A DNA stretch of 21,915 bases. It comes from an archaeon (lineage in GTDB: Archaea > Iainarchaeota > Iainarchaeia > Iainarchaeales > 1-14-0-10-31-34). The notes below the pieces were generated by a model that was not told the origin of the DNA, did no database searches, and saw only the letters and a program-made list of their open reading frames with translations. This document shows, in pieces, positions 938-17,272 of this stretch. The translations under genes and the position numbers were made by a program. Within the stretch, counting starts at the first letter, position 1. Each line of letters begins with the position of its first letter. Location of the stretch: NCBI GenBank assembly GCA_043815885.1, contig JBDRIL010000056.1:1-21915 (forward strand), in the 5' to 3' direction.

Positions 938-1711
938 CTATGTTGATTTTTTAGCAATCTTTTTCTTTTCTTTATATTTGAAGTGTTTGGCTATTACGGC
1001 GATGGCTGTTTTGTAGGTTATTGGCTTGTTTGTGAGGCTGGTTTCTTCTTCCCATTTTGTGTAGATTTTTTTAGCGTTTTTGAATATTTTATCAATGTCA
1101 TAGTTTAAGCCAACTTCTTTGAGTTTTTGTTTTACAAGTTTTTCGTCAATCTTTTGCTTGGAAGAAATTATTTGGTATGCGTCAAAGTAATCTCTTGGCT
1201 GGTTTCTCTGAAAAAGCGAGCGAATTTTTTCAGCAAGCAGTTCTTTTTGATTCAACATTGTAATGCTAAAGTCCGGGATTTCCTTATAAAAATGCTTTAC
1301 TTGTTTTTTCTCTGGCTCTAAATGAATTTTTGCGTGAGAATTTAAGTCAACATTAACATACTCTTTTTCCTTGAAATAACTCTTGTAATACACTCGTATT
1401 CGGGTGAATTTCTCATTTTCCTTGTCAGTTCCAAGTCTTGTAAAAAGACCAGGGTTTTCTTTGACTATTTCTTCAATTTTCTCTTTTACTTCACTTATTT
1501 TTGCAGTGCAAGTGAAATCCAAGTCCTCGCTTAGCCTTGTGTGGTTGAAAACAATTTTGTTTAATGCTGTTCCACCTTTGAAATACAAGCCATCAATGTC
1601 TTTAATCAAGTAAAGCAGGGCTGTCAGAAAATAGTCTTTTTCCAAGTAAATAAGGTTAAAGTCTTTTTCAGCTGCAATATTCTGAAGCTTTGCCTTACTA
1701 ATCAAATCCAT
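938..1711 (-). CDS. Type IV TA toxin, AbiEii/AbiGii family nucleotidyltransferase
   Basis: Motifs LEKDY, FKGGTAL, RLSEDLDF, LLAEKIRSL and RDYFD are typical of AbiEii; coupled to the upstream AbiEi-like gene. Confidence 0.92.
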   Translation of the reverse strand: MDLISKAKLQNIAAEKDFNLIYLEKDYFLTALLYLIKDIDGLYFKGGTALNKIVFNHTRLSEDLDFTCTAKISEVKEKIEEIVKENPGLFTRLGTDKENEKFTRIRVYYKSYFKEKEYVNVDLNSHAKIHLEPEKKQVKHFYKEIPDFSITMLNQKELLAEKIRSLFQRNQPRDYFDAYQIISSKQKIDEKLVKQKLKEVGLNYDIDKIFKNAKKIYTKWEEETSLTNKPITYKTAIAVIAKHFKYKEKKKIAKKST

Positions 1712-2199
1712 TTCTTGCTCTCCTCTTTGCTTGCAATCAAAAAGCTATGTCCTGCGATCATTCGCTTTACAAAATCGCCAAGCTTTCTTACTCTCTTAAG
1801 CCTAAACTTTGTTCCAAGAACATTCCTAGTGCCCTGTCTTGTAGTGGAAAAAACATCAATAACTGCAGGAAGCTGGTCAATAAGACCCCAATAATGAACC
1901 GCGGCTTTTCCCCCAACATAGTAACCTTTTCCGTTAAACATTTCATCAGCCACTATAAAAGGGTGTTCAGCCCAGCTCTTCTGCGCATGAATAGGAACAA
2001 GATAATACTTATCCTTGTTTATCCTCACAACCCGCCCCTTACGCTTAAAGGAAGAAAGATATTTACGCAAATCAACATCCGATTTAAAGAAGTGCCTAAT
2101 ATCTTTTTTGGAGAAAAAACGCTTTTCTTCCAACTCCAAAAAAGACACTACCTTAATCTCCTTATCAGACAACCCCTTAATACTAATTTTTCCAGCCAT
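1702..2199 (-). CDS. Type IV TA antitoxin, AbiEi family transcriptional regulator
   Basis: N-terminal wHTH ending KRKGRVVRINKDKYYLVP, plus YYVGGKAAVHYWGLIDQLP; overlaps the AbiEii start; GAGGTAG SD upstream. Confidence 0.88.
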   Translation of the reverse strand: MAGKISIKGLSDKEIKVVSFLELEEKRFFSKKDIRHFFKSDVDLRKYLSSFKRKGRVVRINKDKYYLVPIHAQKSWAEHPFIVADEMFNGKGYYVGGKAAVHYWGLIDQLPAVIDVFSTTRQGTRNVLGTKFRLKRVRKLGDFVKRMIAGHSFLIASKEESKKWI

Positions 2200-2202
2200 T
2201 TT

Positions 2203-2263
2203 AATGCTACCTCAATGTTACCATATTAGTAACATTAGTGTAGCAATCTTTTTAAGCTTTTCT
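2203..2263 (-). promoter_or_regulatory. abiE promoter with nested inverted-repeat operator
   Basis: Half-sites AATGCTAC (2203), AATGTTAC (2214), GTAACATT (2229), GTAGCAAT (2240). The minus strand reads GAAAAG-CTTAAAAA (BRE/TATA-like) just upstream. Confidence 0.6.
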
Positions 2264-2371
2264 GGCTTCAATTCAAGGCATCTTTATGCTATTTTTCCTT
2301 GTAGCTTGCTATCTCATCTCTCAATTTTCAGAGCCTCTTTACCATATAATTTTAACTTGTTGGTAAGACCC

Positions 2372-2442
2372 TCTAATATAGGCAATGATGACGTCATTGC
2401 AAATAAACATTTAATGCATTAATGCCTGAAACACTCAGTGCC
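2372..2442. repeat. Diverged duplicate of purH 3' end and downstream flank (att-like direct repeat, copy A)
   Basis: Aligns with 5225-5292. The minus strand encodes GTECFRH* versus GARGFKH* at the purH end. Confidence 0.85.
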
Positions 2443-2477
2443 TAAAAGATTTCAATTTCATTTAAGGAATCACGCTA

Positions 2478-2626
2478 ATATCAAAAGACATTAATTATGA
2501 AACTTTTTTATTGTATACCGAAGGTATGCAATGTTTTTTTTGATAAAACTTTTTCTAAAAGTTTTTTAATGTCTTTTGATAGCTATCAAAGGACAAATTT
2601 TGTTTCTATATTTTGGTCCTTTGGAA
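2478..2626. repeat. Dispersed palindromic element with TATCAAARGACA half-sites (copy 1, with nested hairpin insert)
   Basis: Homologous, in inverted orientation, to 21342-21436. Confidence 0.85.
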
Positions 2627-2803
2627 TCAAAGCTATTATTTACCTTTGAAAAGCAGGGAATAAACGTTTTTTCTTTCGGCGAAGCAAAAAAAATTCTAAA
2701 GATGCCGAATAACTCTTTAAAGAATGTGATTTATCGCTTTAAGAAGAAAAAGAGAATAATTGAAATAAAATTCTCAACACAGTGTTTTAACTCTACGCCC
2801 TGA
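2612..2803 (+). pseudogene. Truncated AbiEi-family antitoxin (N-terminal wHTH fragment)
   Basis: FGPLESKLLFTFEKQGINVFSFGEAKKILKMPNNSLKNVIYRFKKKKRIIEIK parallels the N-terminus of the 1702..2199 protein, then similarity stops. No convincing start, no C-terminal domain, no toxin partner. Confidence 0.6.
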
Positions 2804-2833
2804 CTTTCAACTTCCTGCACCATCAAAACCACA

Positions 2834-2869: not shown

Positions 2870-3207
2870 AGACATCCCTATCAAACAAAACCCCCCAGAT
2901 TTTGAAAGTTGTAATTAAAAGTTGGATTGCGCTCCTAAGATGGACTTAGACAAGAAATCGAAACCTGCAACGGCATAATAAACAAGCTGGCTGATTACTG
3001 GCAGAAAAGGGAGAAATAGTTATCACTGGTTTCTCAATGCAGGCCTGTTTTTGTGATAACTGGTTTATACGGTTGTAATAGGGTTAAAATGCCTGTTTTG
3101 ACTCTCTTGTAATAGTATGAATATTGCTTTTCGTAATGAGCAATATGGCGTGTTATTACGCATTATAATGAGCAATATTTAAATACTTGTTTGTCGTATA
3201 ATATGTC

Positions 3208-4527
3208 ATGGTTTTGAAGAAAAAAACATTTACCGCAGACGCAATTTTAGTCAATAAAATAACAAAAGAGCTTTTGGGCACTGTAATAAAAGACCAGTTA
3301 AAGGAATTTGAGGCCTTGAAAGACTCTGTTCCAAGAAGCGTTTTCCCAGAAATAGCAGAATATAAGGGTGCAGCTGCGTTTGTAGTAAAAGGCCTAAGGA
3401 GATGCGGCAAAAGCACTCTTTTAAAGCAAATAATTGAAGCAAAATTCAGGGAAGACTTTTACTATTTCAACTTTGACGATGAAAGAATATTCGGGTTCAG
3501 CGCAGAAGACTTTCAAACCCTAATGGAAACCTTTATTGAAATGTTTGGAAAAAGAAAAAACGTTTTCTTTGATGAAATACAGAACATTAAAGGATGGGAG
3601 TTGTTTGTAAACAGAATTTTAAGGCAAAACTACAGGGTTTTCATAACAGGCTCCAACGCAAACCTTTTGAGCAAAGAACTTGGAACACATTTAACCGGCA
3701 GGCACGTTGACATAGAGCTATTCCCATTCTCATTCACAGAATTCCTGAAGGCAAGAAAAGAAAAAATTCCAGAAAAAGGATTCTATTCAACGGACGAAAA
3801 AGCACAGCTTTCAAGAAGATTCAAGGAATACTTTGAAAAAGGCGGGATGCCTGAAGCAATAGTTTTCTCAAATGATGCAGTACTAAGAGAAGTAATAAAT
3901 GACATAATACAAAAAGATATAGTAACCAGATACAACATAAGAAAGCCGGCTGAACTGAAAGCAGTGCTAAAATTCCTAATTGCAAATATGGCAAATTCCG
4001 TGACCTACCGCTCCATAACAAACAACTTCAAAATAAAAAGCCCGAACACAGTGCAAAAATACACAGAGTATGCTGAAGAAACCTACTTAACATTTACAGT
4101 GCATAAGTATGAGAAAAAACTCAAAAACTTTGACAAAAACCCAAAAAAAGTTTACTGTATAGACAATGGAATAATAAGAGAAAACTCTACTGCCATAAAT
4201 GAAAAAAAAGGCGCAATGCTGGAAAATCTGATAGCAGTGCAGCTCAAGCGGCTCGGAAAAGAATTCTATTATTACAAGGGAAAAACAAGCAGTGCAGAAT
4301 GCGACTTCATACTCCCAAAAGAAAAGCATGCAATACAAGTTTGCTATAACCTGAACGAAAACAACAAAGAAAGGGAAACAAAAGGCCTGCTCGAAGCAAT
4401 GGAAAAAACAAAGGCAAAAAAAGGCCTAATACTGACACTTGACCAAGAACAACAAACCACCAAAGAAAACAAAAAAATAACAATAAAACCAACTTGGCAA
4501 TGGCTCCTGGAAAACGAGCCATCATAA
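3208..4527 (+). CDS. AAA+ ATPase, AAA_14/DUF4143 family
   Basis: Walker A GLRRCGKS, Walker B VFFDEIQ, ITGS, LTGR, GGMPE, KVYCIDNG, ENL, and a C-terminal ECDF...AIQV nuclease-like motif. Confidence 0.93.
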   Translation: MVLKKKTFTADAILVNKITKELLGTVIKDQLKEFEALKDSVPRSVFPEIAEYKGAAAFVVKGLRRCGKSTLLKQIIEAKFREDFYYFNFDDERIFGFSAEDFQTLMETFIEMFGKRKNVFFDEIQNIKGWELFVNRILRQNYRVFITGSNANLLSKELGTHLTGRHVDIELFPFSFTEFLKARKEKIPEKGFYSTDEKAQLSRRFKEYFEKGGMPEAIVFSNDAVLREVINDIIQKDIVTRYNIRKPAELKAVLKFLIANMANSVTYRSITNNFKIKSPNTVQKYTEYAEETYLTFTVHKYEKKLKNFDKNPKKVYCIDNGIIRENSTAINEKKGAMLENLIAVQLKRLGKEFYYYKGKTSSAECDFILPKEKHAIQVCYNLNENNKERETKGLLEAMEKTKAKKGLILTLDQEQQTTKENKKITIKPTWQWLLENEPS

Positions 4528-4565
4528 AACCATCAATTTTAAGGAATAATCCCTATACATTAAAG

Positions 4566-4581
4566 TAGGCAATGATGAGGT
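4566..4581. repeat. Third copy of the 16-bp core TAGGCRATGATGASGT
   Basis: TAGGCAATGATGAGGT; 15/16 identical to each of 2379-2394 and 5230-5245. Confidence 0.75.
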
Positions 4582-4680
4582 AAACTACAAGCAATATATG
4601 ATTCAAATAGGTACTAAATAGAAACATATTTAAATTATATATGGCACATATATTACAGTATGTTTTGTAGGTGGTTTTAG

Positions 4681-4923
4681 ATGAATGTGGATTTTAGAGG
4701 ACGAACAAAACAGATACTGGAGAACATGGTTGAAGAGGGTTATGCGAACACTCAATCCGAAGCAGCCAGACTAGCAATAGTACAGTTTGGAGAAGAACAC
4801 TTCAGTGAAGTGGAAATAGTTAATAGAAAGCTTGATAGAATAGACCAAGACATAAAAGCAGGGAGAAGGAAACTACTTAACAATGACCAAGCCCTTGGCG
4901 AATACGCAAAACACTTGAAGTAA
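4681..4923 (+). CDS. Putative type II antitoxin (ribbon-helix-helix/CopG-like)
   Basis: 80 aa with an RHH-like pattern ILENMVEEGYANTQSEAARLAI; precedes a RelE-like gene; AGGTGG SD; ATATATG-GCA-CATATAT palindrome upstream (4637-4653). Confidence 0.75.
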   Translation: MNVDFRGRTKQILENMVEEGYANTQSEAARLAIVQFGEEHFSEVEIVNRKLDRIDQDIKAGRRKLLNNDQALGEYAKHLK

Positions 4924-4928
4924 TCAAC

Positions 4929-5192
4929 ATGCACAAACCAGGATTTGATGAAGACTGGCCAGAATACTTCAACAAACTAGACCACGCCGTCAAAGAACGT
5001 GCTGCTAAGAAAATAAGGAAAATCCTTGAGTTTCCCAAAAAACGCCACCTAAAGAAAGGCGCCAGGTTCTTCGTTGACGAAATCGGCCAGAGCAGAATCG
5101 TCTACAGAGTATTTGAAGAAAACAACGAAGTCAGGTTCTATTTTATCGGAAACCACAAAGAATACGAAAAATGGTATAAACAATACCTCTAA
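4929..5192 (+). CDS. Putative RelE/ParE-superfamily toxin
   Basis: 87 aa, basic; GQSRIVYRV...FYFIGNHKEY RelE-like C-terminus; downstream of an antitoxin-like gene. Confidence 0.75.
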   Translation: MHKPGFDEDWPEYFNKLDHAVKERAAKKIRKILEFPKKRHLKKGARFFVDEIGQSRIVYRVFEENNEVRFYFIGNHKEYEKWYKQYL

Positions 5193-5224: not shown

Positions 5225-5292
5225 TCTAATAGGCGATGATGAGGTCATTGCAACTGAAACATTTAATGCATTAATGCTTGAATCCTCTTGCC
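5225..5292. repeat. purH 3' end and flank (att-like direct repeat, copy B)
   Basis: Aligns with 2372-2442; contains hairpin GCGATGA-N5-TCATTGC. Confidence 0.85.
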
Positions 5293-6809
5293 CCGGAAAA
5301 AATTAATGCAATTCCCTTTTCGTTTGCTTCTTCTATTACTTCTTTGTCTTTAATGCTTCCCCCTGGCTCAATTACTGCAGTGATTCCGGCTCCTGCAGCC
5401 AAGTCAATGCTGTCCCTAAATGGAAAGAATCCATCTGAAGCAAGAACTGCTCCTTCACTTTTTATTCCTGCCTGTTTCAGTGCAAGGTCAACTGCCCTTA
5501 CTCTTGAGGTCTGCCCTACTCCAATTCCAATTGTTGCCTTTTCTTTTGCAATCACTATTGCATTACTCTTTACGTGTTTTACTACTTTAAATGCAAATAA
5601 AATATCCTGCAATTCTTTTTCACTTGGTTTTTTTTCTGAAACAAACTTTAATTCTCTTTCCTTTAATTCTTTTTCGTCTTTTTCCTGAACCAATAAGCCT
5701 CCATCAATCTTCTTGAATTCAATTTCATTTTTTTCTTTTTTATTTAAATCCAGTTTCATTATTCTCAGGTTCTTTTTTTCTTTCAGTAGCTTCAATGCTT
5801 TTTCTTCAAAAGAGGGAGCAATCACCACTTCATTGAAGAAGGAAGTAATCTCTTTTGCAGTAGCATCATCTATTTTCCTGTTCAATGCAATTATGCCTCC
5901 AAAAGCTGATTCAGCATCGCACTCCAATGCCTTAGTGAATGCTTGGTGCAGTGTTTTTCCTGAAGCAACACCGCAGGGATTTCCGTGCTTTATGATTACT
6001 GCAGTTGGTTCAGGGAATTCCTTCACTAATTCTACTGCAGCATTCAAGTCAAATAAATTATTGAATGAAAGCTCTTTTCCGTGCAATTGCACTGCATTAA
6101 CAGTACTTGAAGCATCTGCAAGGGATTCCTTATAGAGTGAAGCCTTTTGATGAGGGTTTTCCCCATACCTTAAATCCATTAATTTATCAAAGGAAAGAAC
6201 CATTTTCTCCGGGAAACCCCCAGAAAACCTCTTATTAAAGAAACCAGAAATAATTGCATCGTATTCAGCTACATGCTGGAAGGCCTTTACAGCTAATTCC
6301 TCTCTAACTTTTTTATTCAGTGAACCTCTTCCTTTCTTTATTTCATTTAAAATATAATTATAATTAGTATAATCCACTACCACTGCAGCATTCTCATAGT
6401 TCTTTGCAGCAGCCCTAATCAATGTAGGCCCGCCAATGTCTATTTCTTCAATTATTTTTTCCAGAGAAGAAGTCTTCTCCAGAGTCTCCTTGAATGGATA
6501 CAAATTAACTACAATTAAATCAATTCCTTCAATTCCCTGCTTCTTTAATTCACTTAAATGCTTTTTATTCCTTTTTGCAAGGATTCCAGCATGAATTTTA
6601 GGATGAAGGGTTTTCACCCTTCCTTCAAGCATTTCAGGAAAGCCAGTCACCTCTTCAATCGGAATTGCCTTTACTCCCGAATTCCTTAATTTACTGTAAG
6701 TTCCGCCAGTAGAAATTATCTTTACTCCCAATTTCTGCAGTCCTTTAGCAAATTGCACTATCCCTTCTTTATTTGAAACAGAAATCAATGCAGTCTTTAT
6801 TTTACTCAA
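5271..6809 (-). CDS. purH: Bifunctional AICAR transformylase/IMP cyclohydrolase
   Basis: ALISVSNK, ISTGGT, GRVKTLHP, IDIGGPTLIRAAAKN, LRYGENPHQ, KHGNPCG, ASDGFFPF, PGGSIKD. Confidence 0.98.
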   Translation of the reverse strand: MSKIKTALISVSNKEGIVQFAKGLQKLGVKIISTGGTYSKLRNSGVKAIPIEEVTGFPEMLEGRVKTLHPKIHAGILAKRNKKHLSELKKQGIEGIDLIVVNLYPFKETLEKTSSLEKIIEEIDIGGPTLIRAAAKNYENAAVVVDYTNYNYILNEIKKGRGSLNKKVREELAVKAFQHVAEYDAIISGFFNKRFSGGFPEKMVLSFDKLMDLRYGENPHQKASLYKESLADASSTVNAVQLHGKELSFNNLFDLNAAVELVKEFPEPTAVIIKHGNPCGVASGKTLHQAFTKALECDAESAFGGIIALNRKIDDATAKEITSFFNEVVIAPSFEEKALKLLKEKKNLRIMKLDLNKKEKNEIEFKKIDGGLLVQEKDEKELKERELKFVSEKKPSEKELQDILFAFKVVKHVKSNAIVIAKEKATIGIGVGQTSRVRAVDLALKQAGIKSEGAVLASDGFFPFRDSIDLAAGAGITAVIEPGGSIKDKEVIEEANEKGIALIFSGARGFKH

Positions 6810-6815: not shown

Positions 6816-7358
6816 TCACCCTTTCACTAATTTTTTCCATCCAAAGCATCCAACAACATCTGAAATGTATGGTGTTCCAATTCTTGTTTTTTTATCTATT
6901 GCGACAACCCATGAATCCATTCTAAGATGTATTCCATGTTTTGAAGCCAATAAAACATTCTTTTTTACTATTTCATCTATCTCTTTTTTATTTTTAACAT
7001 TTTTCGTCTTAACCATGCTTTGCACAACAAATTTGCCTCCTCTGCGTAAATCAGTTAAAACTAATATTGGATTCATTCCATTGGGTTTAACGCACATAAA
7101 TGTCGGAACTACTTTACATCCAATGCTTCTAAACATTGAAAGCATTCTAAAGTCATTTCTTGCCTGATCTTTTGGCAGGTGAGGCTGATAAACTTTTGCG
7201 ACAAAAGGAACTGCTGCTTTACCAAAATAAACTTTTGACCCTCTTATGCTTCCATGAGTACCACTAGCTTCTCTGCCTATCTGTGATTTTGTTACAGTAA
7301 AGCTTATTGGGCGGTCCTTTTCCACCATGTGCTTTTTTGGTCTTCCCATAAAAATCAT
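6816..7358 (-). CDS. Hypothetical basic protein, possible degenerate protein-kinase-like fold
   Basis: Fills the purN-purH gap with an ATGA overlap; GSQ-rich N-lobe-like start, FVAKVY, LVLTDL, HGIHLRMD, YISDV. Confidence 0.7.
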   Translation of the reverse strand: MIFMGRPKKHMVEKDRPISFTVTKSQIGREASGTHGSIRGSKVYFGKAAVPFVAKVYQPHLPKDQARNDFRMLSMFRSIGCKVVPTFMCVKPNGMNPILVLTDLRRGGKFVVQSMVKTKNVKNKKEIDEIVKKNVLLASKHGIHLRMDSWVVAIDKKTRIGTPYISDVVGCFGWKKLVKG

Positions 7359-7975
7359 TTCAATATTTTTACTTTTTCCCCTTCAACCTTTATTTTTCCT
7401 TCTCCAAATAATTTAATTGCTTTCACTAAAACCTCTTGCTCTGCCTTCTGTACCTTTTCTTTCAGCGAATCAACTGTTTCATTCCCAGAAATCCTTACTT
7501 CCTTCTGCAGAATAATTGGCCCTGAATCAAGTTCCTCTGTAGCAAAATGCAATGTACAACCACTAACCTCAACTCCTGCATCCAATACCTCTTGATGCAC
7601 ATCCTTATCCATCCCCCCTGCAAAAGCAGGAAGCAATGATGGATGAATATTCATTACTTTATTCTTATACTTTTCAATGAATGGCTTGCTTAAAAACCGC
7701 ATATATCCAATCAATAAAACCAATTCCACTTTTCTTTTCTCTAATTCCTTTATTGCTTCTTTATCGAATTCCTCTCTTGAAGGAAACTTCTTTGGATCAA
7801 TGAATACAGCTGGAATTGAATGCTTTCTTGCCCTCTCCATACAATAAGCATCTTTTTTATTGGATATAAGCACAGAGACCTTTGCATTAAGCTCTCCTTT
7901 ATTTATTGCTTCCATCACTCCTTTCAAGTCAGAAGCTTTTGTCGAAGCTAGAACTCCAATACTCAGTTCCTTCAT
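7355..7975 (-). CDS. purN: Phosphoribosylglycinamide formyltransferase
   Basis: VLLIGYMRFL, MNIHPSLLPAF, SGCTLHF, LDSGPIILQ. Confidence 0.97.
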   Translation of the reverse strand: MKELSIGVLASTKASDLKGVMEAINKGELNAKVSVLISNKKDAYCMERARKHSIPAVFIDPKKFPSREEFDKEAIKELEKRKVELVLLIGYMRFLSKPFIEKYKNKVMNIHPSLLPAFAGGMDKDVHQEVLDAGVEVSGCTLHFATEELDSGPIILQKEVRISGNETVDSLKEKVQKAEQEVLVKAIKLFGEGKIKVEGEKVKILK

Positions 7976-8440: not shown

Positions 8441-8666
8441 TTATTGCAGGTAATCAATTAATTCTTTTCTAGAAGTATTTGATTGCTTTAATATGCTTAA
8501 TAATGTCCCTGGTTTTATTGCCTTTTTCATTGGAACAACCACAATATAATTTCTCAAATGTTTTTCTATAAAGAGATGTGTGGCTTCCTTTTTGTCTTGC
8601 CACAGAGAAACCTTTGGATTGAAGAAACTTAAGCATTTCTTTTCCTGATACAACAGGCAATCTCAT
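8441..8666 (-). pseudogene. hicA: HicA-family toxin, frameshifted
   Basis: N-half MRLPVVSGKEMLKFLQSKGFSVARQKGSH and C-half VVVPMKKAIKPGTLLSILKQS lie in different frames; span 226 nt = 3n+1. Confidence 0.85.
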
Positions 8667-8669
8667 TTA

Positions 8670-8961: not shown

Positions 8962-9804
8962 TTAAAATTTAAGTTGTTTCCTTGCAGCAATCAATACATT
9001 CTCAATCAATGAAGCAACAGTCATCGGCCCAACACCGCCAGGAACAGGAGTAATAAAAGAAGCAATTTTTCTCACTTCCCCAAAATCCACGTCCCCGACA
9101 ATCGTTCCTTCAATCCTGTTTATTCCTACATCAATCACTACTGCTCCCTTCTTCACCATTTCCTTCATGATTAATCCTGCTTTTCCCACTGCAACAACCA
9201 GTACATCTGCTTTCTCTGTGAATTCACTTAACTTCTTGGTGAATTTATTGCAGTAAGTTACTGTAGCATTTTCATTCAATAACATTATCCCCAAAGGCTT
9301 TCCAACAATATTGCTTGTTCCAACAATTACTGCATTCTTTCCTTTCAGGGGAATTTTTGTTGACTGCAGCATTTTCATTATTCCTTTTGGAGTCGCGGGA
9401 AGCAATGCTTTCTCTCCCAAAAAACCCTTTCCAATATTTAATGGATGAAATCCATCCACATCCTTTTCAGGAGAAATTGAATTCATTACCTTGAACTCAT
9501 TTATGTGTTTAGGCAGGGGAAGCTGCACCAGAATGCCGTTCACTTCTTTATTTTCATTTAAATTATTAATAATATTAATCAGTTCTTCTTCGCTTATGCT
9601 TTCATCCAAAAAATGGTTTTCTGTATTGATTCCAGTTTCCTTGCATGCCTTTTCCTTTGCATTCACGTAAATCCTTGAAGCTTCATTTTCTCCAATCATT
9701 ACAATAGAAAGAGTCGGAATAAAATCCAATGATTTTACTTCCTTTTTCACTTTATCCAATAATTGCCGGGCTAATTTCCTTCCATCAATTATCTTAGCCA
9801 ACAT
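8962..9804 (-). CDS. folD: Methylenetetrahydrofolate dehydrogenase/cyclohydrolase
   Basis: IIDG, GILVQLPLP, KDVDGFHP, VGKP, ITPVPGGVGPMT. Start placed at MLAKIIDG (ATG 9804) rather than the track's 9843. Confidence 0.97.
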   Translation of the reverse strand: MLAKIIDGRKLARQLLDKVKKEVKSLDFIPTLSIVMIGENEASRIYVNAKEKACKETGINTENHFLDESISEEELINIINNLNENKEVNGILVQLPLPKHINEFKVMNSISPEKDVDGFHPLNIGKGFLGEKALLPATPKGIMKMLQSTKIPLKGKNAVIVGTSNIVGKPLGIMLLNENATVTYCNKFTKKLSEFTEKADVLVVAVGKAGLIMKEMVKKGAVVIDVGINRIEGTIVGDVDFGEVRKIASFITPVPGGVGPMTVASLIENVLIAARKQLKF

Positions 9805-9852
9805 ATAAATTAAAAGAAGAATAAAGGTTATTAATATAATCAATTATCTTTC

Positions 9853-10329: not shown

Positions 10330-10359
10330 GATAAATAAACCTTTTTCTAATTAATAAAC

Positions 10360-10843
10360 CTAACCTGAAATACTTAACTTTAGCCCCCATTTTTCCAGGA
10401 TTTCTCCAGGATATTCTCCCCTGCTAACAATTTCTAGCGCTTGATTAATCGCTTTGATTTGGTTTTCCAATTGTTTTTGCTTTTCTGGGTTAATGCTACG
10501 TCTATCTAATAATCTGCTTTTCTGTTCTTTAATTTGCTTAAGCTCTGACATTATTTCAACTATAGAACGAATAAGCAATGGTCCCCTCCTTTTCGCTTTT
10601 GCTTTAACAGGTTTCCCACTCTTTAATTGCCTTAAGTTTCTATTAGCTGCTTCCAGTTGTTGGCTTAATCTTTTTCTTGCACTACCACTAGTTCCCGGCT
10701 TATTCAATTCGGTTAGAAGAAAATTTTTCGCTTGTTCAAGACTCAGAATCTGTTGTACCCTAAAATCAGGTATTTTTACTCTTTCTAACTTTCCCTCTTG
10801 GGGCGACATTTTTCACGGTTCTTCTTTTTCCAGGGGAAGGCAT
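10360..10843 (-). CDS. Hypothetical basic coiled-coil protein, probably with a frameshift near the 5' end
   Basis: 149-aa ORF 10360..10809. The ATG preceded by AAGGAG (10843) is one base out of frame and yields only 25 aa. Confidence 0.55.
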
Positions 10844-10856
10844 TAGTTTTTTCTCC

Positions 10857-11087
10857 TTAGAATTCATTCTCTGCAACAGAACCCTGCTTGATGCAGGTGT
10901 TTCCTTCATCTATTATTCCATCACAGTCATCATCCAATCCATTGCATAACTCGTTTTGTGGAATGCATTCATTCTCAGCTGTTGCTTCAGTAGGAAACCC
11001 CACAGGAGAAGAGAAAAAAGAATTAAGAGTAACATAAGCTAAAGCAAAAATAAGCACTACGATATAGACTGCCATTACCCTCTTCAT
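10857..11087 (-). CDS. Small membrane-anchored protein with putative metal-binding motif (Cu-binding_MopE-like)
   Basis: N-terminal TM/signal; ELCNGLDDDCDGIIDEG. Confidence 0.8.
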   Translation of the reverse strand: MKRVMAVYIVVLIFALAYVTLNSFFSSPVGFPTEATAENECIPQNELCNGLDDDCDGIIDEGNTCIKQGSVAENEF

Positions 11088-11140
11088 AACAAAATAGATG
11101 CTTTAACTTGTTTTTAATTATTTGCTTTTTCTGCTGATAG

Positions 11141-11180
11141 AATCAGTAAATAATGAATCCCTTGCACAATTCAATTACTT
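11141..11180. repeat. Perfect 40-bp duplicate of glyA 3' end (att-like)
   Basis: AATCAGTAAATAATGAATCCCTTGCACAATTCAATTACTT is identical to 12593-12632. Confidence 0.97.
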
Positions 11181-11186
11181 TTTCCA

Positions 11187-11837
11187 TTATTCTCTTTCTA
11201 TTTCTTTTAATGTCTCGTCATAATATTTTTTGAATTTTGTTTTTTCAAGTAATTCATTTAATTTTTCCTGGTTTATTTCTAGTTTTAGTAAGCCCTGAAT
11301 GTCTCTTTTGTCTTTTTCTATTTTTGCTTTTAGTCTGTCTCTTGAGAATTTTGATAGGTTTGCCCATGTCTTTATTTTGTATTGCCTGTCTTTTAGTGCT
11401 GCTGTCTTGTATAGCAGCAATACTTCTTTTTCTGGTACTCTTGCTGTTACATCTTTATTTATTTTCCATTCTTTACTGTTTTTGTCTGCCAACTTCCATG
11501 GAATTTCAATTGATTTATTTGAAGCAAGAGTGTTTTTGTCTGATAGCGTAAAAATATCCAACTCAATTTCTTTTTCACCTGTTTCTTTTCTGAATAGTGT
11601 CCTGGTTTTGGCTTTCCTATCTTTTTTGAAACCATATTGTTTACTGTATTTTTCAAATACTTGAATTACTTGTTTTGTTGGAAGCACTAAATCAATGTCA
11701 ATTGAACCAGCTCCTTTTGTATAATAGTATACAGCCCAGCCGCCTATTATGATTGGATGCAGGCCATGAATGTTGAATAACTTTGTTGTCTTAATTAATT
11801 CTTTGAATGAAAGCTCTGTTAATTTGTTTGAATTCAT
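11187..11837 (-). CDS. Pol-beta-superfamily nucleotidyltransferase (putative type IV TA toxin)
   Basis: IIIGGWAV...SIDIDLV, ELDIF, LLLYK, KDKRDI. Start placed at ATG 11837 behind GAGGA. Confidence 0.82.
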   Translation of the reverse strand: MNSNKLTELSFKELIKTTKLFNIHGLHPIIIGGWAVYYYTKGAGSIDIDLVLPTKQVIQVFEKYSKQYGFKKDRKAKTRTLFRKETGEKEIELDIFTLSDKNTLASNKSIEIPWKLADKNSKEWKINKDVTARVPEKEVLLLYKTAALKDRQYKIKTWANLSKFSRDRLKAKIEKDKRDIQGLLKLEINQEKLNELLEKTKFKKYYDETLKEIERE

Positions 11838-11839
11838 GT

Positions 11840-12442
11840 TTATTCCTCGAACTTTAGGCCCCAAAGCTGCTTGTATAGGTCTCTTGCATAAAATGATTTA
11901 TTGTCGCAAACTAAATCAATTAGGGTTCTTATCTTGCTTGTCACTGTAAAGCCTTTAATTTTATTGGTTTCTGGTTTAATGTCTGGCTTAAACATCCAAA
12001 GCATTGTGTTGCCTCCAGTTAATGGCTTGAATTCCTTTTCTATTTTTTTGAATTCTTTTGAGTTTTCTTCAACGTAAACACAAACCCTGTCAGAACGCCA
12101 GTAACCAGAATAAAACTCTAAAGCCGAATCAAGGCAAAGCATTGTTCCTTTCGGCAGTCTATTGATTACTTGTTTTATTGAAAGCCTTAAAGGAAGCTTC
12201 TTCAAAACCAATGAATTTATGTCCCTATACAAAGGAAACAAAGAAATCAGCCCAGCAGGATCAATTAACTCGTATTCCCTTCCTCTTTTTTCAACAAAAT
12301 TCTTATTAACAAGCCACTGCACTACTTCATTCATTCTACCCCAAGAAACTTCAGTATCCTTAAATACTTTTGTTTGGGTAAAAACAGGATTAAGCAAAAC
12401 AAAAGAAACAACCTTGTAAGTTTGCTTTGAAGTTAATTTCAT
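11840..12442 (-). CDS. wHTH regulator, AbiEi-like putative antitoxin
   Basis: N-terminal HTH (FTQTKVFKDTEVSWGRMNEVVQWL); C-terminal VTSKIRTLIDL resembles the AbiEi C-terminal motif; directly upstream of the NTase. Confidence 0.78.
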   Translation of the reverse strand: MKLTSKQTYKVVSFVLLNPVFTQTKVFKDTEVSWGRMNEVVQWLVNKNFVEKRGREYELIDPAGLISLFPLYRDINSLVLKKLPLRLSIKQVINRLPKGTMLCLDSALEFYSGYWRSDRVCVYVEENSKEFKKIEKEFKPLTGGNTMLWMFKPDIKPETNKIKGFTVTSKIRTLIDLVCDNKSFYARDLYKQLWGLKFEE

Positions 12443-12474
12443 AAAATATTAATTAAGTAAAACTGTTTTTAAAG

Positions 12475-12512
12475 ATATCGGTAAAAACCGATATTTAAAC
12501 AAAAAACCGATA
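12475..12512. promoter_or_regulatory. Putative operator of the HTH/NTase operon
   Basis: ATATCGGT-AAAA-ACCGATAT inverted repeat plus a third half-site AAAAACCGATA. Confidence 0.55.
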
Positions 12513-12592
12513 ATGAGAGATTCGTGTAATATGGCTTCCAAAAGAATATCATAAGTTTCGCTTTAAAGCGAAAATACTTTTTCAATTAATAA

Positions 12593-12632
12593 AATCAGTA
12601 AATAATGAATCCCTTGCACAATTCAATTACTT
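12593..12632. repeat. glyA 3' end, second copy of the 40-bp repeat
   Basis: Identical to 11141-11180. Confidence 0.97.
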
Positions 12633-13824
12633 CCTGCCTGATTTTCTTTCTTTCCCCTGCATCATCCTTTTTCTCGATTGTTTTTGCAATAAGCCTCCCT
12701 GTTTCCTTCATCTCTCCTTCCTTCATTCCTCTTGTAGTTAAAGCAGGAGTGCCTAACCTTATTCCTGACGGATCCAATGGCTTTCGTGAATCAAATGGAA
12801 TCATGTTCTTATTGCAGTAAATTCCAACTTCATCCAATACAGTTTCTGCTTCTTTTCCAGTAACTCCTTTATCAGTTAAATCAATTAAAAGAAGATGATT
12901 GTCTGTTCCCCCGCTCACCAGTCTGAATCCATGGGACTGTAGTTCTTCTCCTAAAGCCTTTGCATTTTTCACTATTTGTTTGCTGTAGTCCTTGAATTCC
13001 GGTTTTAATGCTTCCCTGAATGCAACTGCCTTTCCAGCATTAATATGGTCATGAGGCCCTCCTTGTAAACCGGGAAAAACTGCTTTATCTATTTTTTTAG
13101 CGAATTCTTCCTTGCACATTATCATTGCCCCTCTGGGGCCTCTCAAAGTTTTATGTGTTGTTGTAGAGACAACATCAAAGAATGGAACAGGGTTTTCATG
13201 AACTCCTGCTGCGCACAATCCAGCAATATGGGCAATATCTGCAAAGCAGTAAGCTCCAACCTCATCACAGATCTTTCTGAATTCCTTGAAATCAATTGCC
13301 CTTGGATAAGCAGTAAAACCAGAAAGAATCATTTTTGGTTTTTCTTTCTCAGCAATCTTTCTAATCTTATCATAATCAAGCATTTCGCTTTCTTTTTCCA
13401 CTCCATAGGGAACCACATTATAGTATCTCCCGCTGAAGTTAACCTTTGACCCATGCGTTAAATGCCCTCCATGAGCCAAATCCATTCCCATGAATTTATC
13501 TCCAATTTCCATTAAAGCATAATAGACTGCCTGATTAGCTGGAGAGCCACTGTAAGGCTGTACATTCACATGCTCTGCATCAAATAATTTCTTTGCTCTT
13601 TCAATTGCTAAATCCTCCACTACATCAACAAATTCATTTCCCCCATAGTATCTCTTGTGGGGATATCCTTCAGAATATTTATTAGTAAAAACTGAACCCA
13701 TTGCCTCCATTACAGCTTTGCTTACATAATTCTCTGAAGCAATTAATTCCAGTCCATCCATCTGCCTCTGCTTTTCGTCCTCAATTGCCTTCGCTATTTC
13801 TGCATCAGCTTTCTCCAAAAACAT
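12595..13824 (-). CDS. glyA: Serine hydroxymethyltransferase
   Basis: [58 protein letters not shown]. Confidence 0.98.
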
Positions 13825-13906: not shown

Positions 13907-14848
13907 ATGAATGGATTCCAGAAGATTGACTATGATTTGGGTTTTTCTTCCAGCAAGAGAGGAGCCAATCCAGTTGGAGCAGTAATTGGAATCATTTTAA
14001 TATTTATCTCTATTTTTATTGGAATTGCATTAAGGAGTCCTGTTTTAACTATTGCAGGAGTGATAATTGGAGTTCTTTTTATGGCTGCAATAAGGGTTGC
14101 AGCTGAATGGGAGAGAGTAATTATTTTAAGGCTTGGAAAGTATTCACGAAAAGTCGGTCCAGGATTATTTCTGATAATTCCAATATTTGAGCAAACCTTT
14201 AAAGTTGATTTAAGGACAAGGGTATGGGATGTAAGGCCCCAAGAAATAATGAGTTCTGATTCAGTTCCAGTTGAAGTAGATGCAGTAGTTTACTATAAAA
14301 TTGTCGATCCAGAAAAGGCAATAATGAATGTAGAAGACTATGCAACTGCCTCAGTTAAAATGGCTCAAACCACTCTAAGAGACATTGTTGGAAAAAGTGA
14401 TTTAGACAGGCTGTTAATGAAGAAAGAAGAAATCGGGAAAGACATAAAGATAATCCTTGACAAAGCCACAGATCCATGGGGGATAAGTGTAGGCAGTGTG
14501 GAAATAAAGGATGTGGTACTGCCTCAAATGCTTAAGAGGGCAATGGCAAAAGAAGCAGAAGCATCAAGGGAAAAGAAGGCAAGGCTGATTAAGGCAAGCG
14601 CGGAAGAAGAAGCGGCATCAAAATTCGAGAGAGCAGCAAAAATAATGATGAAAAGTCCGGCAGGAATGCAGTTAAGGCAGTTGCAGACCTGGCAGGAAAT
14701 CGGAGCAGAACAAAACTCCTTAATGATTCTGATTCCAACAGAATTCGCCAAGAATGTAGGAAATCTGGGATTGGTTGGATTGGGCAGCGAAGTCCTGAAA
14801 GAAGTACAGAAAAAAGAAAAAAATAAGACAACCAAAGAAAAGAAATAA
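13907..14848 (+). CDS. SPFH/band 7 (stomatin/slipin) membrane protein
   Basis: EWERVIILRLG, GPGL, VDLRT, AQTTLRDIVG, ATDPWGI, VEIKDV. Confidence 0.95.
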   Translation: MNGFQKIDYDLGFSSSKRGANPVGAVIGIILIFISIFIGIALRSPVLTIAGVIIGVLFMAAIRVAAEWERVIILRLGKYSRKVGPGLFLIIPIFEQTFKVDLRTRVWDVRPQEIMSSDSVPVEVDAVVYYKIVDPEKAIMNVEDYATASVKMAQTTLRDIVGKSDLDRLLMKKEEIGKDIKIILDKATDPWGISVGSVEIKDVVLPQMLKRAMAKEAEASREKKARLIKASAEEEAASKFERAAKIMMKSPAGMQLRQLQTWQEIGAEQNSLMILIPTEFAKNVGNLGLVGLGSEVLKEVQKKEKNKTTKEKK

Positions 14849-14884
14849 TTGCTGATTCTTGATTTTATTTACCTTGCTGTTTTG

Positions 14885-15175
14885 TCATATTTTTGAGAGA
14901 TATTTTTCAAGGTCGCGGTAGTTCTTTTTTCTTTCAAGAAGGCAGACTATCAATATATTGGGTTCAAGCACGATGTAAATGAGCCTTGTTTCCTTTCCCT
15001 GTAGATTCAGCCTTACACGGAATACCTTGTGGAATTTTTTTGAATGAATCCGTTTGAATCTGAAGGGGTTTTCCTTTATTAGCGCAATCTTTTCCTGAAT
15101 TATTCTTTTGCTTTTTTCATCGATTTTTTTGATTTGCTTGAGAAAGAATTCCAGTGCTTCAACCCTGAAGCTCAT
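14885..15175 (-). CDS. RelE/ParE-superfamily toxin
   Basis: 96 aa, basic; FLKQIKKID...KENPFRFK...FRVR...RLIY; ATGA overlap with the antitoxin. Confidence 0.82.
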   Translation of the reverse strand: MSFRVEALEFFLKQIKKIDEKSKRIIQEKIALIKENPFRFKRIHSKKFHKVFRVRLNLQGKETRLIYIVLEPNILIVCLLERKKNYRDLEKYLSKI

Positions 15176-15426
15176 TGCAATGCCTTCATGAGTTTCTCTT
15201 CATCCACGAATTTCTTTTTCTTGATGGATTTCTCAATCAGGGAATCAATCAATTCAATTTCCTTTTCAGAGAAGGATTCATCAAAATCGCTTTTTTCAAA
15301 GATCTTTTCCCTGACGGATTCGTTGACCAATTCCTGCAAATTCCTGTAGCCATAGTTCTCTGCAAAAGACTCTGCAGCATTGTAAAGATTAGAGGACATT
15401 TTCAGGTTAATTTGTTTGGTAGCCAT
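15172..15426 (-). CDS. Putative antitoxin (RHH-like)
   Basis: KQINLKMSSNLYNAAE...ELVNESVREK, acidic C-half; upstream of a RelE-like gene. Confidence 0.78.
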   Translation of the reverse strand: MATKQINLKMSSNLYNAAESFAENYGYRNLQELVNESVREKIFEKSDFDESFSEKEIELIDSLIEKSIKKKKFVDEEKLMKALQ

Positions 15427-15448
15427 AGATATCTATAGATACCAAGGT

Positions 15449-17272
15449 TTATTTAAAGGTTTTTGTTTTCTTTTTCTTTAATGCAATAGCGTATGCTTTA
15501 AGGTAATTCTTTACCAGTTTGTTCCAGTCAAATAAATAAGACATTTTTTTGGCGCGGATTTTTTTGTCTCCTCGCTCCTTTTTGTTCATGCAATAGATTT
15601 TTTCCATCATGTCTGCGAGTTGTTTTACTGCCTGATTGTAGGTTCTGTACTCCCTTTCAATTATTTCTATTGAACCATTTGCTTTCTTTCCTATTTTCTT
15701 CTTAACATATCTTCCGAAACCGCTTAAGTCAGAGGTTACTGTCTGTAATCCAAGGGTTGCTGCTTCCAATGGAGTGTAACCCCATGGTTCGTAGTAGGAA
15801 GGAAACACTCCCAAATGAGAGCCCATCATTGCAGGATACACGTCCAGGCTTAAGAGACAGTCAGTTGAACTAAGGTAAGCAGGATAGAAAATCACTTTCA
15901 CTTTATCATTCACTTTATTGGATAAATTATTCTTTTTGATTGCTTTAGTTATTTCGTTTCCCTTCTCCAATTCAAATGCAGAGATAGGGGGAAGTTTTCT
16001 GTTCTTTGACCTCAATTCCACAAGCATTTTGGAAATCGTGTGCTTGAATTCTTCATCCAGTAATTCCTCTCCCCTTGGAGTCATTCCCATTGAAATAAAC
16101 CTGAATATCCTTTCCTTGATGTCACTCATTTCTGAATCAATTTCTTCCTCCATCCTGTCATAAATAGCCATATGCTTTAATACCTCTAAATTCTTTCCCC
16201 TTGTTTTTATTGGAGTCCATATAAATACAATCACCTTTCTCTGCAGTTCTGATTTCTTCAGTCTGTTATTAAGCTCCCCCAATGCATCAATGAAAATGTC
16301 TACTCCTTTATTCCTGAATTCATATCTCCCAAGAATGAAAAAAAACAAGGTGTCCCTGACATCAATGTAATAATATGGGGCAAAATAATCTATAACGAAT
16401 TCCCTTATCCTGTTCCGGTATTTCAGGTGAAGTGTTGAGAGCTCTTCCATGAATGGAAACTTCTCCATATCCAATCCGTTTGGAACAATTACGTCTGCCT
16501 TTTTTGCCAGGATATATTCTGCTTCAATTGAGGTTATTTCGCTTACAGTCGTAAATACGTCTGCCTCTTTTGCAGATTTTTTTTCCATTAAATGAATTGC
16601 CTCTAACCTGTATTTCCTGCTTTCCCTGTCAGGAAAATGAGTTCCTTTTTTCAGGTTGTTTTCCACTAACTCGTACAGGTTTTTCCCTGAATTCGCTATT
16701 GCCCTTCCAATCCTTGTTGCATGGGTAGTGAAGACAGTCTTTATTTTCGGGTTAGCGAGCTTTAAATGAAGCAGTCCTGCTCCTGAATACCATTCATGGA
16801 AATGAGCAATAACTTTCTCTTTTGGGAAAACTTCTTTTGTCAGTTCATCAATCAGTATTCCTGTTGCCTTGCTCCAGGCAATCCTTTCATCGAATTCCTT
16901 TGGGCTGTTAAGAGAATCAATCTTCCAGTTCTTCCAGTACTCTTTCTTTATTTCATCAGTGTTTTTACTGTATTCCTCTACATCAATCAACAGGCATTTT
17001 GGACGGCCAGGAACAATCCAATGGCCGGAATAACACTTTATCCCGAATTTTTCCAGTTTATCAAACACCCTTCTGAATTCCTTGCTTGGAGGCTCATCCT
17101 CAAAATCCACTGCCGCCTGCCTCGGAATATAAGGCCCTACAAGAAAATAACCCTTCAGGTTATTCTTCATTATCGAGGCCTTAGAGGAAAGAACAGTATG
17201 AATTCCTCCAACCTTATTAACGACCTCAAACCCTACCTCAAAAACAATACAGTCCTTCTTCATCCCATCCAC
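15449..17272 (-). CDS. Glycogen synthase, GT3 family
   Basis: FEVGFEVVNKVGGIHTV, HFHEW, FTTHAT, GRYEFRNKG, GVFPSYYEPWGYTPLE. The start may be ATG 17263. Confidence 0.95.
   Translation of the reverse strand: MDGMKKDCIVFEVGFEVVNKVGGIHTVLSSKASIMKNNLKGYFLVGPYIPRQAAVDFEDEPPSKEFRRVFDKLEKFGIKCYSGHWIVPGRPKCLLIDVEEYSKNTDEIKKEYWKNWKIDSLNSPKEFDERIAWSKATGILIDELTKEVFPKEKVIAHFHEWYSGAGLLHLKLANPKIKTVFTTHATRIGRAIANSGKNLYELVENNLKKGTHFPDRESRKYRLEAIHLMEKKSAKEADVFTTVSEITSIEAEYILAKKADVIVPNGLDMEKFPFMEELSTLHLKYRNRIREFVIDYFAPYYYIDVRDTLFFFILGRYEFRNKGVDIFIDALGELNNRLKKSELQRKVIVFIWTPIKTRGKNLEVLKHMAIYDRMEEEIDSEMSDIKERIFRFISMGMTPRGEELLDEEFKHTISKMLVELRSKNRKLPPISAFELEKGNEITKAIKKNNLSNKVNDKVKVIFYPAYLSSTDCLLSLDVYPAMMGSHLGVFPSYYEPWGYTPLEAATLGLQTVTSDLSGFGRYVKKKIGKKANGSIEIIEREYRTYNQAVKQLADMMEKIYCMNKKERGDKKIRAKKMSYLFDWNKLVKNYLKAYAIALKKKKTKTFK

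Follow-up and report, generated by a model that had tools for sequence, protein, structure and literature searches.

Elements that integrate at the 3' ends of genes, such as tRNA genes or, as islands, at trmE or dusA, regenerate the end of their target, encode an integrase and use one fixed site. Archaeal integrons were reportedly described by Ghaly et al. in 2022, and Nobusato et al. in 2000 are said to have described insertion with long target duplication of restriction-modification gene units. Here we describe a 1.45-kb toxin–antitoxin (TA) cassette that differs from these arrangements in size and gene content. It lies behind glyA, the gene for serine hydroxymethyltransferase, in a stretch of DNA (the window) of 21,915 nucleotides (nt), which is an entire contig (C56) in a genome bin of 1.16 Mb and 62 contigs; the source organism is a DPANN (Iainarchaeum-like) archaeon. 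Relatives in its family encode a TATA-binding protein, and public entries for close homologues bear the label Candidatus Iainarchaeum / Diapherotrites. The cassette, a putative MenT/AbiE-like pair, is bracketed by two copies of the glyA 3' end, and the same kind of scar brackets this one TA family in many archaeal lineages. The form of the repeats suggests that the cassette arrived on DNA bearing its own copy of the target's end.

Bacterial restriction-modification genes can insert with long target duplication, and in the sections drawn on here of the study by Furuta, Abe and Kobayashi (2010; PMC2853133) the resulting repeats exceed 30 bp, have a site-specific sequence and sometimes lie over the 3' end of a gene, with no mobility gene in the unit; no archaeal case passed the screen as those sections give it. 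Photorhabdus, according to the portions of a second study used here (PMC13617665), carries tiny TA-only islands between core genes that lack an integrase or transposase and whose TA families vary between relatives at one and the same spot. These islands are proposed to spread when the core genes beside them undergo homologous recombination, a process that leaves no repeat, and the term 'direct repeat' is absent from those portions (PMC13617665). A literature search of limited coverage turned up no archaeal TA pairs described as having long, mosaic target repeats.

Results

A mosaic repeat of the glyA end brackets the TA cassette

The cassette, its target gene and the two repeat copies are arranged as follows.

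12595..13824, minus strand: glyA, serine hydroxymethyltransferase, the target gene (Pfam SHMT, E 6e-172; 81% identity with glyA of the relative G002)
12577..12651: proximal repeat copy, comprising the last 18 codons of glyA, the stop codon and 18 nt beyond
11840..12442, minus strand: AbiEi-like putative antitoxin of 200 amino acids (aa) with a winged helix-turn-helix (wHTH) of TrmB type and a weak AbiEi match (E 7.7e-4)
11187..11864, minus strand: MenT/AbiEii-type nucleotidyltransferase, putative toxin, 225 aa, with a 25-nt overlap with the antitoxin gene
11125..11199: distal repeat copy, an orphan gene tail that overlaps the end of the toxin gene and is out of frame with it

The two copies form direct repeats of 75 nt that are identical at 64 of 75 positions and lie 1452 nt apart, with 57 nt representing the coding end of glyA including its stop codon. 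Their core of 40 nt is identical, compared with at most 18 nt for exact local repeats when the window was shuffled 100 times, and both copies are found nowhere else in the genome. The duplication of the glyA 3' end behind the cassette, read from the letters alone in an earlier note on this DNA (hereafter the original prediction), is thus real and far beyond what shuffling produces.

All 11 mismatches between the copies fall in the arms, five of them in the 18 nt past the stop codon and six in the gene-internal arm of 19 nt. With 11 mismatches among 75 positions, the chance of a mismatch-free run of 40 is ~0.001. Within the gene-internal arm, 13 of 19 nt of the distal copy agree with the proximal copy, no closer a match than the glyA genes of other genera give (13 and 14 of 19, for example). 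The 57 coding nt of the proximal copy are matched by the glyA of relatives at no more than 43 positions, which argues that the 40-nt identity is not mere conservation. Throughout, glyA retains a full-length end that matches its relatives. The scar has the mosaic form expected if the incoming DNA bore a piece of the target gene, and in this it points the same way as a second locus, L154, described below.

Separate records cover both junctions of the repeat without a mismatch. A separately assembled metagenome contig (L050) is 100% identical over the glyA end, the proximal repeat and the cassette, and a 151-nt record from run X3 spans the distal repeat with 44 and 32 nt on either side; both may derive from the window's own population. 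The objection of an assembly artefact, which the original prediction had itself raised, is therefore not borne out at the level of contigs. A wider version of this objection would have the scar arise by strain collapse in the bin, or as a leftover foreign glyA fragment introduced by patchy recombination, with no mobile cassette involved. The bin is in 62 contigs with a depth of ~5x in one close run, a strain variant that lacks an open reading frame (ORF) of 149 aa exists, and the genome is full of short dispersed repeats. Set against this are the independent mismatch-free records of both junctions, the uniqueness of the glyA repeat in the genome, and the recurrence of the scar around the same pair in other archaea well over geometric expectation, which together make this account highly improbable.

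Most of the sequence is found in one run, a groundwater metagenome, where its depth is ~5x. A joint in X4 from position 10934 to 12579 was rejected as an empty site, as its short side is only 32 nt and its ends lie off the repeat borders. Joints in metagenome contigs with sides of 20–21 nt were disregarded, and among the X1 joints listed none skips the glyA cassette.

The scar recurs around the same pair family in other archaea

Metagenome and genome collections yielded 108 loci of the pair family, 100 of them distinct. With L050 excluded as part of the window's population, and 300 nt needed on both sides of the pair, 72 loci were eligible. In 12 of these 72 other archaeal loci, one of which (L143) comes from a genome flagged as unpublished, a direct repeat of at least 35 nt straddles the pair. 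When repeat clusters spaced 1.3–4 kb are considered, 16 of 21 straddle the pair, versus 5.9 expected from geometry. The straddling repeats are 35 to ~430 nt long and 77 to 94% identical, and the tight repeat-bounded units measure 1498 nt (L139), 1603 nt (L154) and 1732 nt (L152). The repeated sequences are mutually unrelated; some are intergenic, and others cover part of a methylase gene, the end of a phage capsid-like gene or a 23S rRNA end. At eight other loci, Pfam matched none of 23 ORFs within or next to the repeat-bounded units to a recombinase family. A scan of eight other loci with Rfam gave no match at the gathering score. Docking specifically at the 3' ends of housekeeping genes, the defining feature of the system originally proposed, is not general, since the repeats in other genomes are often intergenic.

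At one locus, L154, from a Micrarchaeota genome, the pair stands just behind the 3' end of 23S rRNA (Rfam LSU_rRNA_archaea, model positions 2749–2987, 62.7 bits). The last 124 nt of the 23S gene recur across the far side of the pair (3066–3189 versus 4669–4790). The same 23S end piece is present in 29 of 40 other genomes of this family and is single copy in 27 of the 29. In an alignment of the two copies with ten relatives (the unpublished G082 omitted), the copies differ at seven columns, all within the 3'-terminal half, and agree throughout the gene-internal 62 nt. At 7 of 7 columns the orphan copy carries the state found in most or all of the ten relatives (nine or ten relatives in six of the columns), and it is the rRNA-joined copy, with two 1-nt deletions, that is deviant. 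This direction of divergence indicates that the element supplied the gene-joined 23S end. The pattern is that expected of a reciprocal crossover between the chromosome and an incoming, diverged target end, and it is the opposite of the one that an on-the-spot duplication with later decay of the orphan would leave. We further note that the 23S rRNA gene of L154 now terminates in a copy that departs, through two single-base deletions and five substitutions, from positions kept by most or all of the ten relatives.

The L154 alignment bears directly on the idea that the repeats were made at insertion, through a staggered cut or a copying of the target that left two copies identical at first, the orphan decaying later. 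Such an origin would explain how one module comes to sit at many different targets, several repeats elsewhere are still 94 to 98% identical, and the pattern fits a class with repeats >30 bp, variable targets and no mobility genes, as that class appears in the sections of the source used here (PMC2853133). In L154, however, it is the diverged copy that is joined to a functional 23S gene, the orphan being ancestral at 7 of 7 positions, and the window's repeat has its mismatches concentrated in the arms (P ~0.001) instead of showing the even spread that decay predicts. We thus regard duplication at insertion as quite improbable and rank it below the erosion of a larger element.

Erosion is the main rival of an anchor-borne entry and ranks second. 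It supposes that an integrase-bearing element entered the 3' end of glyA (elsewhere that of 23S), regenerated it, and was then deleted down to its addictive TA pair, whose loss would kill the cell. An identical core with diverged arms, the polarity of L154 and the presence of TA genes as what remains inside the repeats would all follow from such a history. Erosion of a carrier to TA-only islets has been proposed for bacteria in the portions of PMC13617665 used here, and decay does occur in the window, where an AbiEi fragment and a frame-shifted HicA are found. Nonetheless, four units (those of the window, L139, L154 and L152) span just 1.45 to 1.75 kb for a 1.25-kb pair, which would require near-complete erosion several times independently. 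No integrase remnant was found among the 23 ORFs of such units nor in the window, and no locus with the pair beside an integrase was identified, the flanks having had no systematic scan for integrases. Several units being near-minimal and no remnant having been found, we place erosion second and consider it unlikely.

Two-copy local repeats in the genome are enriched around TA and defence genes

Self-comparison of the source genome gave 74 local direct-repeat pairs, mostly within paralogous genes; these were discarded as insertion scars. Local repeats around housekeeping genes on contigs C50, C48 and C11 were likewise set aside as copies of dispersed short repeats with 22–42 hits each. Ten segments bounded by two-copy repeats enclose whole ORFs, 24 in total. 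TA or defence genes account for 11 of the 24 and fall in four segments, namely the glyA cassette (two), the purH-side segment of the window (four), C14 (one) and C23 (four). For comparison, 2 of 150 randomly sampled ORFs from eight other contigs are TA genes, forming one pair; PADLOC covered the whole sample, and Pfam the 76 ORFs no longer than 230 aa. Two-copy local repeats are clearly enriched around TA and defence genes, in small numbers and with crude gene calls, and the genome-wide search called for by the original prediction thus came out in its favour (11 of 24 ORFs inside repeats versus 2 of 150).

Two of these segments lie outside the window. At C14:2066-3646 (L206) a second AAA_14/DUF4143 ATPase gene lies inside a 98-nt direct repeat that is 91% identical, with 59 nt exact, and unique in the genome. 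At C23:5766-7748 (L205) a DUF4258/MazE-like pair and an MNT/HEPN pair lie between 44-nt repeats identical at 43 of 44 positions. The C23 repeats consist of the promoter region and first codons of a conserved downstream 664-aa gene, a 5'-end counterpart of the glyA scar. The 664-aa gene is found in eight of nine genomes and the gene upstream of the islet in one of nine, the source genome alone, so no empty site can be defined for this islet among the nine. Neither the C14 nor the C23 insert contains a recombinase or mobility gene (Pfam).

The search of the genome for Xer or tyrosine recombinases, also called for at the outset, returned two: XerA on C36 (264 bits against an NCBIfam cut-off of 220) and a divergent enzyme on C49 (100 bits, under the cut-off), with none in the window. 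An IS240-type transposase is encoded on C29 and a TnpB-like protein on C11. The same crossover could have been made in trans by a site-specific recombinase, be it the XerA of the host, its other tyrosine recombinase or an integron-like system, with the repeats as att sites. Diverged arms around an identical core are the layout classically seen in att sites, and the genome has two candidate enzymes. A shared recognition sequence is, on the other hand, hard to find. The repeats at glyA, purH, C14, C23 and other archaeal loci have no visible sequence in common, as the original prediction had observed for the glyA and purH repeats, and their lengths of 35 to ~430 nt are unlike a fixed recognition site. 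No recombinase gene lies near the repeats in the loci examined, and inspection by eye only saw no integron-type attC motif. We therefore rank a trans-acting recombinase below erosion as well, and judge it improbable.

The cassette encodes a putative MenT/AbiE-like pair

The 225-aa protein carries the nucleotidyltransferase motif G-G-x12-D-x-D (G-G-x12-D-I-D in the sequence), and G41, G42, S54, D56 and D58 are invariant across an alignment of 33 homologues. An AlphaFold (AF2) model built from this alignment has a mean pLDDT of 93.3, and its top Foldseek match is the toxin MenT1 (8an4; E 1.8e-6, TM 0.56–0.68), followed by other nucleotidyltransferases and by MenT3/MenT4. A PDB profile search with the same protein again places 8an4 first, but at E 0.17. 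No Pfam AbiEii or PADLOC AbiE match was obtained for it at E <= 0.01, neither cassette protein reaches the cut-off of any Pfam, NCBIfam or PADLOC family, and BLASTP finds no significant similarity between the cassette proteins and the AbiEi and AbiEii proteins of the window. The wHTH gene adjoins the nucleotidyltransferase gene in most related loci. These comparisons suggest that the pair at 11187–12442 is MenT/AbiE-like without being a member of either family, and that its products are a putative toxin and antitoxin.

The same pair occurs elsewhere in the relative G008 (75% and 67% identity), where DNA similarity is limited to window positions 11262–12510, inside the repeats, and a paralogous wHTH–nucleotidyltransferase pair lies on contig C14 of the source genome. 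A perfect 18-nt palindrome (12556–12573) lies just within the cassette, 22 nt past the glyA stop, and two A-rich words of 11–12 nt ending in CCGATA lie upstream of the antitoxin gene (~12482–12514). The palindrome may be a terminator and the CCGATA words an operator.

The other islets of the window and the purH-side repeat

Around the glyA cassette the window carries glycogen genes, the folate and purine genes folD, purN and purH, and further small units, as mapped with Pfam, PADLOC and NCBIfam.

15449-17272, minus strand: glycogen synthase
15172-15426 and 14885-15175, minus strand: 84-aa ORF and ParE/Gp49-like toxin (E 3.6e-4), behind glycogen synthase, without flanking repeat
10335..10857, minus strand: single-gene unit with a 149-aa ORF (10360-10809, no assigned function), missing from a strain variant
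8962-9843, minus strand: folD
8670-8927 and 8441-8666, minus strand: HicB and HicA, between folD and purN, common to G002 and L056, without flanking repeat
7355-7975, minus strand: purN
5271-6809, minus strand: purH
5225..5282, plus strand: purH-proximal repeat copy, a promoter and GGCRATGATGAGGT (C-box) element that overlaps the last 12 nt of purH on the opposite strand
4681-4923 and 4929-5192, plus strand: 80-aa ORF and ParE-like protein (ParE E 0.0023, under the Pfam cut-off), inside the purH-side repeat pair
4548..4581, plus strand: third, partial copy of the promoter and C-box element, between the ATPase gene and the ParE-like pair and more similar to a copy on C14 than to the other two
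3208..4527, plus strand: AAA_14/DUF4143 ATPase (PADLOC candidate PDC-S01, E 4e-110), inside the purH-side repeat pair
2576..2803, plus strand: AbiEi N-terminal fragment, 75 aa (PADLOC AbiEi E 4e-6)
2374..2430, plus strand: distal copy of the purH-side element
1702-2199 and 938-1711, minus strand: AbiEi and AbiEii (Pfam E 3.7e-29; PADLOC 1.2e-40 and 3e-21), outside the purH-side repeats

Five TA-like pairs are thus present, as the original prediction had counted them, with family support in Pfam and PADLOC that is uneven between pairs, and the gene map confirms their positions behind glyA, folD, glycogen synthase and purH. It likewise stands that the window lacks an integrase or transposase, with no match to such families (Pfam) among the 33 ORFs scanned. 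No family is assigned by Pfam to the 80-aa partner of the ParE-like protein at 4929-5192; a homologue of it also lies 1.2 kb behind purH in G004. HicA is split across two overlapping frames (65 and 70 aa), and an intact 75-aa gene is present in G002 and L056; no indel is listed at 8441-8666 in metagenome contigs. The split is either a true frameshift, in which case a decaying toxin stands beside an intact HicB, or a low-coverage assembly error.

The purH-side repeat (2374–2430 versus 5225–5282) is a true two-copy repeat of ~57 nt. Between its copies lie 2.8 kb with genes of a defence type: the ParE-like pair, the AbiEi fragment and the gene for the DUF4143 ATPase. The claim that it copies the end of the host gene does not hold to the same degree as at glyA: just 12 of the ~57 nt, three codons and the stop, belong to purH, and the rest is a promoter and C-box element. 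The left half of the repeat, AGGCRATGATGAGGT, has a third copy at 4567–4581 and more on contigs C14, C60 and C16, and every copy of this element is preceded at a fixed distance by a TATA-like box. The element pattern, at no more than one mismatch, occurs one to eight times in each of nine of nine family genomes, and a reversed control gives none. Genes of every kind adjoin these elements, among them those for hydrogenase, TBP, sugar enzymes and HSP20. Since the element is spread across the family and only 12 nt are purH, the purH-side repeat is a duplicated member of a small-RNA or promoter family and not a regenerated gene end.

A textbook C/D box RNA layout (C box, 12 nt, D', C', 12 nt, D and a GGC/GCC stem) is seen in L161, L169, L189:6981 and L193:2151. 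The three copies in the window all have a C box, one with a D' box at the right distance and another with a far CTGA. They were not retained as canonical archaeal C/D box small RNAs, none having a clear C' box. For the two window guides no match was found in the 16S gene (23S was not located), and matches with no more than one mismatch lie only in protein-coding ORFs and in the repeats themselves. A scan of the window with Rfam at E <= 1 gave nothing except a chance histone stem-loop match.

Further repeats of the window are of other kinds. Those at 19396–19468 and 20820–20892 belong to paralogous small membrane-protein-like ORFs, each behind a glycogen-metabolism gene, and those at 15726–15838 and 21693–21805 to two glycogen synthase paralogues. 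Two short repeat units (~40 and 65–75 nt), partly palindromic and in inverted orientation, lie at 2440–2640 and 21340–21450 and recur on more than 30 contigs of the genome at 87–97% identity, mainly in intergenic DNA. In two metagenomes the summed contig depth over 2102–2635 is ten-fold that of its neighbours.

Operon junctions gain and lose small units among relatives

A search of 41 genomes, the source genome included, found glyA in 33, and the gene order glyA-folD-purN-purH occurs in seven family relatives. The gap between glyA and folD is shorter than 150 nt in G001, G003 and G008, whose glyA (71–74% identity) is too far to align the site, and is filled by other small genes or TA families in G002, G004, G005, G007 and L056, a metagenome contig close to G002. 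For example, G002 carries a DUF4258 toxin with an MqsA/MazE-like partner at the glyA–folD junction, a nucleotidyltransferase gene with HicBA between folD and purN, and MazEF behind purH. Between purH and a convergent gene for 5-formyl-tetrahydrofolate cyclo-ligase, G004, G007 and G008 have a VapBC-type pair, and in G003 purH directly abuts the cyclo-ligase gene. L056 has three extra units, one of them a wHTH–nucleotidyltransferase pair of 50% identity directly before folD.

Metagenome contigs add further cases. In a relative of ~88% identity (X4 record 21), 61 other letters replace 14785–15469, so the ParE-like pair behind glycogen synthase is missing there. X4 record 20 carries the glyA-type pair, then 93 letters, then folD; HicBA is replaced there by other sequence, and the 180-aa ORF is missing. 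In a mismatch-free record of a close run (X1 record 6), 10334 is joined to 10858 via nine other letters and the 149-aa ORF is gone. The presence or absence of this ORF, which lies between a VIT1-like gene and a 76-aa ORF, is a polymorphism of a single gene within the population.

The islets are real insertions, as had been supposed, given that glyA and folD are near-adjacent in three relatives and that the ParE-like pair is missing in the ~88% relative. Judged by gene order, the operon junctions are hot spots for the gain and loss of small units, and HicBA, being common to G002 and L056, is the oldest of the pairs. Self-comparison found no gene-end duplications in the glyA–purH loci of the seven family relatives. 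We also note that in G005 two contigs, C12 and C20 (loci L039 and L040), share an exact 141-nt overlap that ends 2 nt short of the end of the glyA stop codon, and that this 141-mer is confined to the two contigs. The assembly break hints that this same site, in another genus, has alternative continuations or a strain polymorphism, or else a long perfect repeat.

Discussion

Our analysis suggests a history in which small accessory units, mostly TA or defence genes, would have inserted at gene junctions of the glyA-folD-purN-purH operon and of the glycogen genes. The 1.45-kb MenT/AbiE-type pair would have been brought in on DNA bearing its own diverged copy of the glyA end. One reciprocal crossover within the 40-nt identical stretch would then have integrated this circular or circularised piece behind glyA, an outcome in which glyA stays intact and an additional, orphan gene end is placed beyond the cassette. 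Host homologous recombination, acting on a short anchor from a conserved gene, is the likeliest enzyme for such a step, and TA addiction, as in known TA systems, would subsequently select against loss through recombination between the repeats. HicBA, the two ParE-like pairs and AbiE would be ordinary TA islets, either older insertions or products of double crossover in flanking core genes as proposed for bacteria. We give about even credence to the central step, a Campbell-type recombination between the target and incoming DNA with its own copy of the target's end, with no recombinase in the cassette.

The observed basis of this proposal is one repeat copy on each side, a gene end that is kept, a unit without a recombinase, recurrence in other archaea, and a foreign gene-joined end in one genome. 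Spread by DNA that carries a piece of its target, as the original prediction had it, therefore stands in part: the mosaic glyA scar, the recombinase-free units, the 12 of 72 loci and the polarity of L154 favour it, whereas no circle, excision or enzyme was observed.

Several points weigh against the anchor-borne entry of the cassette. The glyA-type pair may be old at this junction and the intervening genes up to folD the newcomers, a possibility raised by X4 record 20 and L056, where a pair of this family stands directly before folD. No same-genus genome is part of the comparison, the closest glyA being 81% identical, and the relatives are too distant for polarity to be read in the window itself; the polarity evidence comes from a single other genome, that of L154. 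In the contig data examined, the glyA cassette is represented neither by a circle or excision product nor by an exact empty site, and three of the five TA pairs in the window have no flanking repeat. The baseline of the enrichment, as described above, drew unevenly on Pfam. Finally, homologous recombination leaves the gain of a new anchor unexplained, yet the family sits at many different targets.

More tentatively, and with the balance of probability against it, we extend the proposal to a general one, in which recombinase-free archaeal cassettes (MenT/AbiE-type pairs and perhaps DUF4143 ATPase genes) would carry a 3'-end homology anchor, such as that of glyA or 23S rRNA, integrate by host recombination that replaces the gene end, and be kept by TA addiction. 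If true, genes could pass between related archaea by a general, enzyme-free route, and the old question of the origin of long target duplications would have an answer. For the question of how TA and defence genes enter chromosomes in the absence of a visible mobile element, the recurrent scar and the polarity of L154 turn a descriptive pattern into a testable model of anchor-dependent, RadA-dependent single crossover. For annotation, an orphan gene tail behind a TA pair is the sign of an insertion, and a conserved gene, even 23S rRNA, may have a foreign end.

Set beside known systems, the pair itself resembles AbiE and MenAT in having a minimal nucleotidyltransferase fold nearest to MenT1 and an upstream overlapping gene that encodes a wHTH protein with a weak AbiEi match, and differs in falling under every Pfam, NCBIfam and PADLOC cut-off. 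Integron cassettes and attC clusters offer a similar picture: their cassettes are small, often bear TA genes, carry no recombinase and stand in rows of one orientation at a single hot spot. Here, in contrast, no integron integrase is near, the repeats copy the neighbouring gene, no attC-like imperfect palindrome is seen by eye, and the C36 enzyme scores as XerA. With integrative elements the cassette shares repeats drawn from the 3' end of the target, an intact gene and, in L154, a gene-joined copy supplied by the element, but it and its relatives are units of 1.45 to 2.5 kb with two genes, no recombinase and many different targets.

The Photorhabdus TA islets are likewise small TA-only islands among core genes whose families differ at the same spot among relatives; unlike them, one islet of the window carries a long mosaic repeat by which a gene end is regenerated. 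Insertion with long target duplication also involves small addictive units without a mobility gene, flanked by repeats longer than 30 bp with a sequence that varies by site, and the repeats around the inserts of this genome are of that size (75 nt at glyA, ~57 nt at purH, 98 nt at C14 and 44 nt at C23). The differences lie in the TA cargo, the archaeal host, the mosaic form of the repeats and, in one locus, a foreign gene-joined copy. In long target duplication both copies come from the target; here the gene-joined copy of L154 departs from its relatives at 7 of 7 positions and the mismatches of the window are confined to the arms. The mosaic repeats and the foreign gene-joined copy thus argue for a copy borne by the element rather than a duplication made at insertion. 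The locus is less than the five-fold 'system' first envisaged and more than an ordinary TA islet, in that its scar recurs around one cassette family across archaeal phyla and the polarity of that scar suggests a testable mechanism.

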